A stretch of DNA of 64,000 bases from a virus. The stretch's first letter is position 1. The number at the start of each line of letters is the position of its first letter. The DNA lies in IMG/VR virus record IMGVR_UViG_3300025133_006719, positions 1-64,000 of that record, one strand, 5' to 3'. Both the position numbers and the translations under genes were made by a program. Shown here piece after piece: positions 12,764 through 18,784 of this stretch. The notes below the pieces were generated by a model that saw nothing but the letters and a program-made list of their open reading frames with translations, made no database searches and was not told where the DNA came from.

Positions 12764-13378
12764 ATGCAAGTCATTGATGATAAACATCTTATAAAGAAAG
12801 TTAAGGAATATTCATGCAGCCCTAGCTTAGTAGAGTTAATCTCTCGTCACTCTGGTATTTGTTATAAAATATTTTCCAAATTCATTAATTCTTTAGAGGA
12901 TAGAGGTAGGGATTACAACGAACTGGTATCAAATAAGGATTATTTTATTTACTTAGCTGTTATGTCTTTTAAAGAAGACAGGAATACATTGTTTTCGACT
13001 TGGCTGGGTAATTACATAAGATATAAATGTTTAGACTTCTTGAATGAAAACAAGCTAAACTATGTCCACCAGATAGACGAGAATCAAAAGAATAATTTTA
13101 TAAATAATAACTCTTCTTTTAAATACAATGAATCCAAAGCATTAAAAGATACCAAAGACTCTCTCTTTGATTTGTTATCACAGTTAAAAGACAGCAGGGT
13201 TAGAAGAGTGTACCATATGAGATATTTTACAAACCACCCCAAAATGACATGGAAAAAGATAGGGGAGAATATGGGTGTTAGCGCTCAAACCGCCATAAAC
13301 CTCCACGAAAAAGGTAAAAAAATAATAGTTTCCAGACTTTACAAAAAAAAGCTTGACGCACCTGCCCCGACGTGTTAA
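12764..13378 (+). CDS. Phage sigma-70 family sigma factor
   Basis: ELISRHSG, F..DRNT.FSTWL.N.IR region 2; MTWKKIGENMGVSAQT region-4 HTH. Confidence 0.8.
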   Translation: MQVIDDKHLIKKVKEYSCSPSLVELISRHSGICYKIFSKFINSLEDRGRDYNELVSNKDYFIYLAVMSFKEDRNTLFSTWLGNYIRYKCLDFLNENKLNYVHQIDENQKNNFINNNSSFKYNESKALKDTKDSLFDLLSQLKDSRVRRVYHMRYFTNHPKMTWKKIGENMGVSAQTAINLHEKGKKIIVSRLYKKKLDAPAPTC

Positions 13379-15223: not shown

Positions 15224-15837
15224 GCGCAGACACCTTAAAGAATGAAATATTAAAAGAAAGAGGCTTCGACCAATACGACTTAAACTTCATAAAAAGAAGG
15301 ACTGGGCTAAAAGAGGAATCTCAAGCCCTAAGCTTAATAGAAGAAGACGAGGACCTAGGTCTGATTGTAGATGAAATAGCATCTTTCCCTTTAGTTAAAA
15401 GGCAGACGTCCAAGCTTTCCCTGAGGTTCTTAATTCTTCTCTTAATTCATAAATATGATCAAGGCAGCATAAAAAATAAACATAAACTTACAATTTCAAA
15501 AATAGCCAGCATCTATTTTGACATGATCTACAATCAAATGCCTGATAATTGCTCCATAGACTTCAGTAAAAAACCAGACGAGGTATCAGCAAAGTTTTTG
15601 TTTGTGTTGAGCGGCTTCTTTGGAGAATATTTTGCTAGATTTTTTAACCAATACGCGGAATATGAACAAGTCAAAGAGAGTCATATCAAATATATAGAGG
15701 CGGGACTAAAGAAAGAAGGAGCAGATAAATGGGCCTCACAAGGTTTAATAATGTTAGAAAAAATCTCCGAAAGGGGATGGTTATCAAGATTTATGAAAAC
15801 GAAAAAAACAAAAAAGGGAGCAAAAGCTGATGAATAA
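15220..15837 (+). CDS. Hypothetical protein
   Basis: Overlapping operon ORF. Confidence 0.6.
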   Translation: MSADTLKNEILKERGFDQYDLNFIKRRTGLKEESQALSLIEEDEDLGLIVDEIASFPLVKRQTSKLSLRFLILLLIHKYDQGSIKNKHKLTISKIASIYFDMIYNQMPDNCSIDFSKKPDEVSAKFLFVLSGFFGEYFARFFNQYAEYEQVKESHIKYIEAGLKKEGADKWASQGLIMLEKISERGWLSRFMKTKKTKKGAKADE

Positions 15838-16609
15838 TCACAAGAAAGATATATTTTATATATTAGCTCTATGCCTTGTGGTTATAGGAGGATGCTCGAC
15901 GCCTCTAGGAAAATTTAACAAACAAAAAAATATCGTAGATAACATACAAAGACAAGAGGATACAAACAAAAGCCAACAAATAGAAAGCGGAAGAACATTT
16001 GTCTACGCAGCTGACCAAGCCCTGCAAAAAGACCCCGCTCCGTCAGCCGAATCCAAGGTAGCAAAACAAATGACAACCAGAGGAGTCACCGCTTTAGGCC
16101 CTCCGCAAATGGAAAATGCCATGAAGTCAGACCAAATGGTAACGGGGCTTCTTTCAACAGACCCCAAAGAAGTAGAAAAAGGTCAGCAAATATTAGCTAC
16201 GATGGATAAAGATTTAGTAGCGTTACAGAACCAGAACAGGGTCTTAAGAGGTCAGCTTGGCGACGCCCAACAGAAATTAGCCATAGTCAACCAGAACAAC
16301 GCCCTACAAGCCACGAAGTATTCTAGCTTAATGGGAAAAGTTTACTGGATAATAGGTATAGTCATCTTCATTGTTGTATTAGTTATTGGATTCAAAATAG
16401 TAACAGCAGTAGCCCCGTTTGCTATGCCAGCAACAGGAGCTACCTCTACATTACTTAAGGTCGTTCAAGGAATACAGAAAGTTAGAGACCAACATATGGG
16501 CGAAAAGCCCGAGATGCTTAAGCAAATTGATGATCACATGAGATCCCACCTAGACAAGAAAGACAGGTGGATGATAGCGCAGGCCAAACAAAAATTACAT
16601 ATGATATGA
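15830..16609 (+). CDS. Lipoprotein with coiled coil and C-proximal TM helix (u-spanin-like topology)
   Basis: Lipobox VIGG-C22; Q/L heptads; TM VYWIIGIVIFIVVLVIGF. Confidence 0.55.
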   Translation: MNNHKKDIFYILALCLVVIGGCSTPLGKFNKQKNIVDNIQRQEDTNKSQQIESGRTFVYAADQALQKDPAPSAESKVAKQMTTRGVTALGPPQMENAMKSDQMVTGLLSTDPKEVEKGQQILATMDKDLVALQNQNRVLRGQLGDAQQKLAIVNQNNALQATKYSSLMGKVYWIIGIVIFIVVLVIGFKIVTAVAPFAMPATGATSTLLKVVQGIQKVRDQHMGEKPEMLKQIDDHMRSHLDKKDRWMIAQAKQKLHMI

Positions 16610-16818
16610 TAAAAGATAATCTAAATAAAAGGGTTTACTGCTGTTTTGTTATAACTATCATAGCCATGTTTTTCCTTTGCGGATGCACCACGACCAAATG
16701 GAAGTGGATGCCTGAAGCGCAAGGTGTCAGCGATTTACACAAACAGAAGCAGTCGCCAAAAGACAGAGAGATTGAGTCAGGCGCCCTGAAAATCAACATA
16801 CTAGAAGTAAAATTTTAG
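16606..16818 (+). CDS. Small lipoprotein
   Basis: Hydrophobic stretch then FLCG-C; ATGA overlap with previous stop. Confidence 0.5.
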   Translation: MIKDNLNKRVYCCFVITIIAMFFLCGCTTTKWKWMPEAQGVSDLHKQKQSPKDREIESGALKINILEVKF

Positions 16819-16861
16819 TAAAAAAAATAGAATAATAACCAATAAGTGTATATTATAACAC

Positions 16862-17485
16862 ATGGCATCAAGAATAGCTGACCAATTTAAAGGCCTCCCA
16901 ATAGGAGAGCTAATCTCACAACCCCTAATTGCAGCGGCGCAAGCCCAAGGTAAATTAGCAGGCATCACAGAACAATTTATTGAAGAAATAGGTCTTGAAA
17001 GCGGCGTAAGCGGACTACAAGCAAGGCAAGTTAAGTTTAATTACGATACTCCAGTTGAGTATAAAACGGGTGTCGTATCCACAACAGTTACTGGAGCCAA
17101 TGGACAGTACGTAACAACTGAAGAGACACGAACTAAGATTGAGCCCAGAACACTGAACGTGCCTCTATTAGCTATTGTCAATACCCCAAACCTTTCAGTT
17201 AAAGATGTCTCTATCGATTTTGACATGAAGGTCCAGTCAAGTACTGAGCACAACGATTCAGTCACGGCAAATATAAACACAAAAGCTTCTTACAGCGCTT
17301 GGTGGTCCCCAGTTAAATGCTCAATGACGGCGTCAGTCGGAAGCAAGAGTAGCAACACGAGAAAGACTGACAACTCGGCTAGGTATACGGTACATTGCGA
17401 AGCTAGGGACGACGGGGCTCCCGAAGGGCTAATGAAAGTTCTCGATATTCTAGGAGAAGCCATTAAGCCTGTTCCGCCTGCTTAA
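16862..17485 (+). CDS. DUF2589-like protein (type A)
   Basis: F.GLP..ELI..PL.AAA.AQ, VPLLAIV..P.L.V..V.IDF.M.V, PEGL.KVLD.L; GTGTATAT motif at 16846. Confidence 0.75.
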   Translation: MASRIADQFKGLPIGELISQPLIAAAQAQGKLAGITEQFIEEIGLESGVSGLQARQVKFNYDTPVEYKTGVVSTTVTGANGQYVTTEETRTKIEPRTLNVPLLAIVNTPNLSVKDVSIDFDMKVQSSTEHNDSVTANINTKASYSAWWSPVKCSMTASVGSKSSNTRKTDNSARYTVHCEARDDGAPEGLMKVLDILGEAIKPVPPA

Positions 17486-17496
17486 GTAAATAATTA

Positions 17497-17997
17497 ATGG
17501 GCTTAACCAACTATTCCCTAAAAAAGACAGGTAAGTTAGAGAGCGAAGAGATTGAAAACTCTAAGCCGGACCTTACCTCCAGTTCTTTAGACAAGCTTGT
17601 AGAGTCTATATATAACTCTGTAGTATACGCTCAAAGAAAGGTTGAAACAGAGCATTTAAGCAGGTTAATGTCGACCTACTTTGACGACGCAGGAAACCCG
17701 ATTACCTTTAAGGTCAATTTACCCGACAATAATGGAGAAGTAAAAGAATCAGCTATACCGCTTCTAACATTAGCGCCGAACTCCCACCTAAGCATATCCG
17801 AACTAGAGATGCAGCTCAAAGTTGACCTAGGTCAGTTCAGCGATGACGATAATGTGAACAATAACAAGTTGAGCGCTAAAATAGGAGCAGGAAAGAAGAC
17901 AAACCTCGCTAAGATTAAAATTAAGATGTCAAGCGCCAACTCTCCAGAGGGCCTAGCAAGGATAAACGATCAATTAGTGAAGATTCTACCGAACTAG
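17497..17997 (+). CDS. DUF2589-like protein (type B)
   Basis: L...I..SV..AQ..VE..H....YFD..G.P, IPLLTL, PEGLARI.D.L. Confidence 0.7.
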   Translation: MGLTNYSLKKTGKLESEEIENSKPDLTSSSLDKLVESIYNSVVYAQRKVETEHLSRLMSTYFDDAGNPITFKVNLPDNNGEVKESAIPLLTLAPNSHLSISELEMQLKVDLGQFSDDDNVNNNKLSAKIGAGKKTNLAKIKIKMSSANSPEGLARINDQLVKILPN

Positions 17998-18010
17998 TCG
18001 TTATACTAAG

Positions 18011-18784
18011 GTGGCAAAAGATTTAAAAATCTTGTTTTGCTCCTTAATAAGAGACAAGGCGGAGTTCATAGGCGACTGGTATTCTAGAATACGTTCAATC
18101 CAGTCTCTAAGGCCAAGTTGGACTTTTAATATAAGCTTATACGAAAACGACAGCAAAGATGGATCCAAAGAGGATCTAGAAAACTTAGATTGGAGCTTCG
18201 CTAATTGGTTCAACCTTTCCTCAGAAAAGAACGATAAAGAATACTTTATTGGCCTAGAAAGGAAAAGGATAGAAAGGCTTTCTTCCTATAGAAATTTGTG
18301 CATCTACCAGTTTGGCGACTTAGATTCTATAGATAGGATTATTATGAACGATATAGATTGCTCCTATGATCCAAAACACGCGGTAGAGATCATAGAAAAA
18401 AGTCTGGAGTGGGATATATTTTCTTTTGCTAGTAGAGACTCTGGCACAGGAGATGAATTTTACGACAGGTGGGCAACCAGAAGAAGCCCAGTTGACACGT
18501 GGTGGGACGACAAACCCTACAACACAAAAGGAGATAATCAAACTTGGACAACAGGAAACGGCTTTGTCTCCTATAATCCAGAAGGCTTTAAAAGAGGTGC
18601 AACTTTTGGATACGTAAATAAGAGGCTAAAAACTCACGATAGTGAAAATGCGGTAGTGTGCGAAAACTTTAGAGCTTTTGGCTTTAACAAAATCGGTTTT
18701 GACGGCAGGTATAACACTATGCACGTGAGAGATAAGCACTGGCACAATAAAAAAGATGGAAGTACTACTAACAACATTCAATAG
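18011..18784 (+). CDS. GT-A glycosyltransferase, Cap59/CMT1 (GT69)-like
   Basis: YENDS.D, RIERLS.YRN, NDID, FYD.WA.R. Confidence 0.6.
   Translation: MAKDLKILFCSLIRDKAEFIGDWYSRIRSIQSLRPSWTFNISLYENDSKDGSKEDLENLDWSFANWFNLSSEKNDKEYFIGLERKRIERLSSYRNLCIYQFGDLDSIDRIIMNDIDCSYDPKHAVEIIEKSLEWDIFSFASRDSGTGDEFYDRWATRRSPVDTWWDDKPYNTKGDNQTWTTGNGFVSYNPEGFKRGATFGYVNKRLKTHDSENAVVCENFRAFGFNKIGFDGRYNTMHVRDKHWHNKKDGSTTNNIQ

Follow-up and report, generated by a model that had tools for sequence, protein, structure and literature searches.

The stretch analysed here (hereafter the window) comprises the first 64,000 nucleotides (nt) of IMGVR_UViG_3300025133_006719, a linear IMG/VR virus record of 79.3 kb that is estimated to be ~52% complete. 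Its source is an uncultured marine tailed phage, whose contig has a guanine-plus-cytosine (GC) content of ~40% and encodes a DnaE-type polymerase, a DnaB-like helicase, a UvsX-like recombinase, a ribonucleotide reductase, rIIA and many glycosylation genes. At the locus of interest (Table 1), two genes for predicted lipoproteins, g1 and g2, are followed by two paralogous genes, A and B, whose products belong to the family DUF2589 (PF11655). A preliminary description of the window had proposed that these four genes form a non-canonical lysis or membrane-attack cassette. All four open reading frames are present in that order, so the observation itself is confirmed, and the interpretation built on it is partly supported. 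Judged from comparative sequence data, the most apt description of the locus is a conserved gene for a putative envelope-spanning lipoprotein, an inserted DUF2589 A/B module and a strain-specific extra small lipoprotein.

Table 1. Features of the g1–g2–A–B locus and the upstream sigma-like gene (positions in the window)
Feature	Position	Strand	Description
g1	15830–16609	+	259-residue lipoprotein precursor; spanin-like predicted topology
g2	16606–16818	+	70-residue small lipoprotein, lipobox FLCG/C; accessory, strain-specific
A	16862–17485	+	207-residue DUF2589 protein, long form; no signal peptide, no transmembrane helix
Hairpin of A	17231–17377	+	Residues 124–172 of A; Ser/Thr-flanked amphipathic β-hairpin, candidate membrane-insertion hairpin
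B	17497–17997	+	166-residue DUF2589 protein, short form; no signal peptide, no transmembrane helix
GTGTATA motif	16845–16861	+	16 nt before the start of A; one copy of a recurring GTGTAAT-N7-8-ATG element
Sigma-like factor	12764–13378		204 residues; weak Sigma70 r2/r4 matches; PHROG 'transcriptional regulator' match (8e-9)

Both A (E = 9.5e-29, 101.2 bits) and B (E = 4.8e-16, 59.9 bits) score well above the Pfam gathering cut-off of 23 bits for PF11655, as the preliminary family call had implied, and a whole-genome scan recovered them as the sole DUF2589 genes of the record. The two genes are separated by 11 nt. Their products are 19% identical, and the two family profiles align with 98.8% probability (hhalign, E = 4.9e-17). 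Homologues of A number 583 at 90% clustering, with 1,110 clusters at 50%, those of B number 73, and B is always adjacent to A in the phages and bacteria examined. The statement that DUF2589 is functionally uncharacterised also stands: in the literature searched, the family is named only as a list entry, in two papers, PF11655 is absent and there is no functional study. Neither PADLOC nor NCBIfam holds a family for A, B or the other components of the locus, a sub-threshold match of g1 apart. Holins have at least one transmembrane helix; A and B have none, the only hydrophobic stretch in the family being a conserved strand (VPLLAIV), and they are therefore not holins by any definition.

The Ser/Thr-rich alternating segment to which the preliminary description drew attention (STEHNDSV...SKSSNT) corresponds to residues 126–165 of A. 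In an alignment of 103 diverse A-family members, taken from the 1,110 clusters at 50% identity, column-mean hydrophobicity alternates over ~10 columns, passes through a tip and alternates again over ~7 columns. The tip is aromatic (GWGPF in the family, AWWSPV in A) and the hairpin is bracketed by Ser/Thr tracts, with Ser and Thr together accounting for 35% of the segment versus 18% of the whole proteins; the mean β-moment of the segment has a median z of 2.0 versus shuffles. The insertion loops of the aerolysin family are built in the same way: an alternating hairpin whose tip is hydrophobic and whose flanks are rich in Ser and Thr. A pattern of this type is conserved across the 103 sequences. 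At the level of sequence, the segment is the signature of a β-pore-former insertion hairpin. The contrast originally drawn with B was too sharp: the segment of A is real and conserved, but B carries a much shorter equivalent rather than none.

The AlphaFold2 model of A (mean predicted local distance difference test (pLDDT) score 74.9) consists of a helix (residues 14–44), four strands (56–76, 83–101, 115–127 and 170–182) and a terminal helix (188–200). Residues 130–166, within the candidate hairpin, are its only unmodelled part (pLDDT <50), with values of 75–95 elsewhere. Comparison with aerolysin, Hcp and tube folds had been suggested as a check; the monomer model of A matched none of these, and fold searches (Foldseek against the PDB, a wide VIA search and BFVD) returned only unnamed homologues or coiled-coil noise. 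Predictions of an A+B complex scored 0.12 and 0.07, under the mark, and are counted neither for nor against an assembly of the two proteins.

The N terminus of g1 reads MNNHKKDIFYILALCLVVIGG/C, with a lipobox VIGG/C that places the lipoprotein cysteine at position 22. Gly21, Cys22 and a subsequent PLG.F motif are invariant in alignments of 15 and 52 homologues; more than 100 further columns are invariant in the larger set, and the residue after the cysteine is Ser, Ala, Gln or Arg, never Asp. The predicted layout comprises a helical periplasmic domain (~25–170), a hydrophobic helix (~172–198) and a C-terminal tail of 60 residues that is almost invariant in sequence. The AlphaFold2 model is all-helical (pLDDT 68.9 overall, 82–90 over residues 31–150), with helices at 25–66, 73–89 and 94–107, then a very long one (112–198) that reaches into the hydrophobic segment, and three lower-confidence helices in the tail. 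Homologues form 151 clusters that are 66–98% identical. No Pfam, PHROG, PADLOC or NCBIfam family accounts for g1, and its model resembles only generic helical bundles in the PDB. Assignment to the coiled-coil/anchor family TIGR04211 was considered and rejected as compositional (19.6 bits against a cut-off of 65).

Set beside unimolecular spanins, g1 presents, at the sequence level, the N-terminal lipoprotein signal of the lipobox type and, in the predicted topology, a putative C-proximal transmembrane helix, which is continuous with the periplasmic helix and is followed by the conserved tail. It does not lie in a holin/endolysin cassette, either among its neighbours in the window or beside the head genes of relatives. 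In T1 gp11, the type example, ~130 residues end at the transmembrane domain and are predicted to be β-rich. By contrast, g1 has 259 residues, an all-helical model and the 60-residue tail, is unusually conserved and stands outside a recognised lysis cassette.

The second lipoprotein gene, g2, probably starts at ATG 16606, where it overlaps the stop codon of g1 (ATGA); the 70-residue form is also the one mostly preferred by gene callers on other contigs. It occurs only in the window and in a 97%-identical relative (L003), is absent in the more distant relatives L004–L006, and its cluster at 90% identity has nine members. A single weak PHROG match leads to a family of unknown function, and the mature protein contains no further cysteine. 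A two-component spanin, with g1 as inner-membrane and g2 as outer-membrane subunit, is not borne out, as L004–L006 have neither g2 nor an embedded lipoprotein frame. The proposed reading is that g2 would be a recent accessory lipoprotein, perhaps an o-spanin-like helper or a gene of the superinfection-exclusion type.

Relatives were retrieved separately by A and by g1. The latter was found in 21 viral contigs, which follow one or other of two genome arrangements. In one, terminase-like, portal-sized and Tubulin/TubZ-like genes precede g1, and cement-like and capsid-like genes follow. In the other, to which the window belongs, a sigma-like factor and a glycosyltransferase-like gene precede it and glycosylation genes follow; genes of unknown function complete its surroundings in the window. 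Seventeen of the 21 contigs lack the DUF2589 pair, and two of these contain no DUF2589 gene across their 53 and 84 kb. The position immediately after g1 is occupied by A+B (four contigs), by a different gene, c25 (four contigs), by others such as a pyruvyl transferase, or by the next backbone gene. Wherever A/B and g1 occur together, the pair follows g1 directly (five of five contigs, the window included), and it does so in both arrangements. Because of this distribution and of the changing contents of the slot, g1 is, on comparative sequence grounds, a backbone gene of the phage group and A/B an optional insert. A single four-gene cassette, as first envisaged, is accordingly not what the relatives display: g2 is strain-specific, most g1 contigs are pairless, and other phage groups have the pair without g1.

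Sequence conservation agrees with this picture. Relative to L004, g1 is 79%, A 72% and B 62% identical, whereas five upstream neighbours reach only 20–55%. Relative to L006, the values are 89% for ribonucleotide reductase, 75% for g1, 60% for A, 46% for B and 37% for the glycosyltransferase. Such strong conservation of A and B within the group argues for a function that the phage itself needs.

The gene that replaces the pair in four relatives, c25 (for example, L089:5842-7326), encodes a Ser/Thr-rich protein of ~490 residues with two long Ser/Thr-rich alternating segments. It has no match in Pfam, even at E up to 10, in a PDB profile search or in INPHARED, and appears to represent an uncharacterised family; PDB sequence and profile searches with A, B and c25 gave chance matches only (4jg2, E = 0.24). 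Among the ESM Atlas neighbours of c25, the only ones with names are MACPF, CDC (thiol-activated cytolysin) and stonustoxin, with a feature score of 0.91 for the MACPF cluster and a structural template modelling score of only 0.27–0.34 over ~230 residues, so that the likeness to perforins and cytolysins is a lead rather than a membership. A Pfam MACPF search of five bacterial genomes gave no matches. When compared by hhalign, c25 and A are unrelated. A c25 profile run against 401 Pseudomonadota genomes found a single genome (G032) with three copies, two of them a tandem pair (L111:6945-9965, minus strand) that directly precedes a leaderless GH19 protein of 220 residues (L111:6286-6948, minus strand) and has a LuxR-type regulator upstream. 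That GH19 protein matches a hidden Markov model (HMM) of the GH19 proteins in bacterial DUF2589 operons, described below, with E = 1.4e-58. Thus, two unrelated protein families take each other's place behind g1 in phages, and in bacteria both lie ahead of the same family of leaderless lysins; both have alternating Ser/Thr-rich segments, to which c25 adds its weak likeness to perforins. Together, these features provide the best evidence for placing A/B in the class of membrane breachers.

In bacteria, a motif scan of one genome per species located A-type genes in 479 stretches, of which the best 80 loci were read; these span Pseudomonadota, Myxococcota, Desulfobacterota, Acidobacteriota, Spirochaetota and Bacillota. 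The A/B pair is present in at least 66 of the 80, a conserved cytoplasmic third protein of ~90 residues in 76 and a small secreted protein in 37, and a third DUF2589 paralogue is found in many loci. In 43 loci, the module is accompanied by a hydrolase or a binding protein of peptidoglycan, on the same strand in 42. These proteins are of five unrelated kinds: GH19 with a peptidoglycan-binding N terminus (24 loci), GH108 with PG_binding_3 (13), PG_binding_1 (3), GH24 phage lysozyme (2) and CHAP (1). For each kind, a single representative was checked against Pfam, and local HMMs then extended the assignment to the others. The representatives read have no signal peptide, and most of 15 operons inspected contain no small protein with a transmembrane domain that could serve as a holin candidate. 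Regulators of the AraC or LuxR type lie upstream.

Non-homologous lysins that are swapped beside a constant module are the signature of lysis cassettes, both holin–endolysin and type 10 secretion. With their constant module and interchangeable leaderless lysins, the bacterial loci resemble such cassettes, with DUF2589 in the place of the holin. The envelope-disrupting role that the preliminary description had suggested draws its support from this shared strand placement with leaderless hydrolases of five families and from the replacement of the pair by c25. Its statement that DUF2589 genes often lie near R-body genes found no echo in the 80 loci, although Reb was not searched for specifically; the commonest small neighbour has no Pfam match.

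Some of the bacterial loci carry further cargo: an EndoU nuclease toxin in Pseudomonas (L039:8625-9395), a DUF4231/SLATT protein with a CHAP hydrolase in a Eubacterium metagenome-assembled genome (L086:7102-8180) and a weakly matching astacin-like peptidase in sphingomonads (L024:7236-8372).

Among viruses, A-type genes were detected in 223 contigs, of which 80 were read, and the long and short forms are paired in ~70 further viral loci. In a group at 58–60% identity, A/B follows nrdA and nrdB, and g1 is absent; c19, tried as a g1 analogue in this second group, proved to be the small subunit of ribonucleotide reductase. In a large group at 41–46% identity, the pair, in the order B–A, comes after YqaJ, RecT and a zinc-ribbon gene and is often convergent with a gene of a PHROG 'endolysin' family (phrog_33083, 1.6e-14) that has small genes with transmembrane domains beside it. 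Taken together, these gene neighbourhoods indicate that the A/B pair is mobile between phages and can occur apart from g1. They also fail to bear out the late-infection use that had been suggested, as the pair adjoins genes of nucleotide metabolism or recombination in these phages. At L148:5678-7742 (minus strand) and ~20 similar loci, the endolysin-like gene is followed by small genes, one of them encoding a transmembrane domain and one a proline-rich protein, an arrangement that may be the lysis cassette of that group.

Building on the observed gene structures, family membership, conservation, synteny and neighbourhood statistics, we infer, with a probability of roughly 40%, that A/B is a non-canonical membrane-breaching device in the place of a holin and that g1 acts as a helical spanin-like bridge; that A and B form a complex and open a pore, what g1 does and when the proteins act are the inferred elements. 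A and B would be made in the cytoplasm without a signal and co-assemble, and the assembly would dock on the inner leaflet of the cytoplasmic membrane. The hairpin of A, with the shorter one of B, could then insert as β-structure and open the membrane, releasing leaderless wall hydrolases or toxins as a holin does in canonical lysis. The outer step would fall to g1, with its lipid anchor in the outer membrane and its transmembrane helix in the inner membrane: the helical periplasmic domain would tether both membranes and could collapse as spanins are thought to, and the conserved tail on the cytoplasmic side may be where A/B or c25 docks.

Pore formers that are made in the cytoplasm and act as β-barrels on the cell's own membrane have experimental precedents in Pepco, EACC1 and bacterial gasdermin (bioRxiv 10.1101/2025.11.14.688446). 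A and B resemble these in being small, signal-less proteins that are proposed to open the membrane of the cell that makes them. However, neither sequence nor fold similarity to Pepco, EACC1, gasdermin or aerolysin was detected, and no recurrent partner protease was seen. Toxins of the aerolysin type, moreover, are secreted and attack from outside, whereas A and B lack a signal peptide. With holin–endolysin–spanin systems and type 10 secretion, the bacterial loci share a constant module beside swappable signal-less hydrolases and the phage locus a g1 protein predicted to be anchored in two membranes; the differences from the holin–endolysin–spanin scheme are that A/B have no transmembrane helices, that no endolysin was found nearby in the phage and that g1 is helical and has a cytoplasmic tail. 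Compared with the DUF2589 cassettes of bacteria, archaea and other phages, the window likewise pairs a long with a short form. By contrast, it lacks the ~90-residue core protein, the secreted protein of ~110 residues and the neighbouring wall hydrolase that bacterial operons contain and has g1 instead, and its gene order is A then B rather than the B then A of most bacteria.

Several observations weigh against a membrane breacher coupled to a spanin-like g1. Most g1 contigs (13 of 21) have neither A/B nor c25, and in some relatives g1 lies inside the head-assembly module. Its conservation, far above that of its neighbours (79% versus 20–55% in L004), is atypical of spanins. In view of these sequence comparisons, the conservation of g1, its frequent occurrence without either module and its place among head genes suit a role in assembly or anchoring at least as well as one as a spanin. 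An amphipathic hairpin can also merely pack on a protein core or cover a hydrophobic surface. Elsewhere among phages, the pair neighbours nrdA/B or RecT/YqaJ genes and stands outside a recognisable late lysis operon. An HMM built from 81 copies of the ~90-residue bacterial partner found nothing in six-frame searches of the 79-kb contig and of L003–L006. Finally, searches of the contig and of the contigs of five relatives revealed no endolysin: local GH19, GH108 and GH24 models gave nothing on the contig and the flanks of L003–L006, nor did Pfam Amidase_2, Phage_lysozyme, M15_4 and SLT in the contig, or Pfam GH19, Amidase_2 and Phage_lysozyme in the five relatives. All of these records are fragments (19–67% complete), so the missing endolysin is not evidence of absence, and the phage may encode one elsewhere.

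The optional nature of the pair invites a different explanation, in which A/B is a conflict module (abortive infection, superinfection exclusion or toxin delivery), an exchangeable and perhaps membrane-acting accessory, and g1 an unrelated core gene that happens to lie by an insertion hot spot. A slot that holds A+B, c25, a pyruvyl transferase or nothing would be expected of such a site, as would the slightly raised GC content (0.424 versus 0.36–0.39); in other phages the pair sits in early-type regions, and the bacterial operons stand alone under their AraC- or LuxR-type regulators, some with an EndoU toxin or DUF4231/SLATT. Yet PADLOC returned no match, the genes most commonly linked to the pair are leaderless wall hydrolases rather than toxins, and A and B are strongly conserved (59–72% identical) in a phage group where neighbouring genes are only 20–55% identical. 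We consider this explanation rather unlikely, albeit one to be taken seriously. It is improbable, in our view, that A and B form a soluble assembly away from the membrane, for example a sheet, filament or chaperone by which wall hydrolases would be retained or controlled and in which the hairpin would be an interaction loop. The lack of transmembrane helices and signal peptides would fit, as would the absence of a pore-former fold match and the elongated monomer model, whose long strands and terminal helices are typical of assembling subunits. Such an assembly would, however, leave unexplained how leaderless hydrolases cross the membrane in operons without a holin-like gene, and why a perforin-like candidate, c25, takes the place of the pair.

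The points raised against g1 as a spanin lead to the proposal that it is a membrane anchor for the assembly of virions or of a replication compartment and that its adjacency to A/B is meaningless. The T4 membrane factor gp40, which helps portal initiation, would offer a parallel for such a role. Half of the relatives place g1 among the terminase-like, portal-sized, Tubulin/TubZ-like, cement-like and capsid-like genes; its high conservation with a near-invariant cytoplasmic tail and the 13 contigs without A/B or c25 are consistent with this proposal as well. An invariant lipobox and a periplasmic helical domain of ~150 residues are nevertheless hard to reconcile with a cytoplasmic assembly factor, and in both arrangements of the genome g1 has A/B or c25 directly behind it (the window and 8 of the 21 contigs). 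An anchoring function with a chance neighbour seems unlikely to us.

The membrane-breaching reading can be extended to the whole family. DUF2589 A/B might be an unrecognised, widespread class of cytoplasmic β-hairpin pore formers in hundreds of bacterial species, archaea and tailed phages that replaces holins in the release of leaderless wall hydrolases and toxins and that, in this marine phage group, forms one unit with g1 as a new helical unimolecular spanin and is interchangeable with the perforin-like c25; in this broad form the proposal is doubtful and is put forward tentatively. To our knowledge, the textbook routes of endolysins over the cytoplasmic membrane always involve helical membrane proteins (holins and pinholins) or a signal anchor in the lysin itself. 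A soluble two-protein β-hairpin module would, if real, be a third route of endolysin export and would link phage lysis mechanistically to the pores of gasdermin- and perforin-like cell death. The family is common, the motif scans having found it in the genomes of 479 bacterial species and in 223 viral contigs. Very few unimolecular spanins are known; g1 would join them as a strongly conserved, helical form or else be a conserved periplasm-spanning phage protein with another role. The coupling of A/B to g1, the status of g1 as a backbone gene with a variable slot behind it and the replacement of the pair by c25, which has a GH19 link of its own, are specific to this analysis.

The Tubulin/TubZ-like GTPase gene between the portal-sized gene and g1 in the head module (L097:3812-4984; also in L088, L090 and L098–L105) matches Pfam Tubulin (2.3e-10) and TubZ-like_C (2e-3) and is absent from the 79-kb contig of the window. 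Upstream of g1 in the window, the sigma-like gene opens a syntenic block (sigma-c5-c3-c4-c10-g1) that is common to relatives. The bin at window positions 16001–18000 has a GC content of 0.424, compared with 0.364 and 0.392 in the flanking 2-kb bins, a mild rise across the A/B insert.

A 2.4-kb stretch of the locus is near-identical in contigs from at least 12 other marine metagenome samples. INPHARED gave no blastn match to the region, and thus no close relative of it among its cultured phages; tblastn with A returned a single match, 29% identical, on an unannotated fragment. Marine RNA sequencing libraries of three studies contain contigs of ~150–300 nt that correspond, with 93–100% identity, to parts of g1, A and B (window positions 15700–18100); as DNA carry-over is possible in such libraries, these contigs, which give no starts, strand or level, cannot prove transcription.

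The GTGTA motif noted upstream of A at 16846 belongs to a real, recurring arrangement, but is not conserved upstream of A in L004–L006. It lies 14–16 nt before the ATG of five plus-strand genes (5656, 14856, 16846, 26175 and 45418), and, of the 31 GTGTA sites, 8 are located in the 60 nt that precede a start, a space that makes up 8.6% of the sequence. The GTGTAAT element looks like either a −10-like element for mRNAs that are leaderless or have a very short leader, or a translational operator. Three more GTGTAAT copies are located 23–29 nt upstream of starts.

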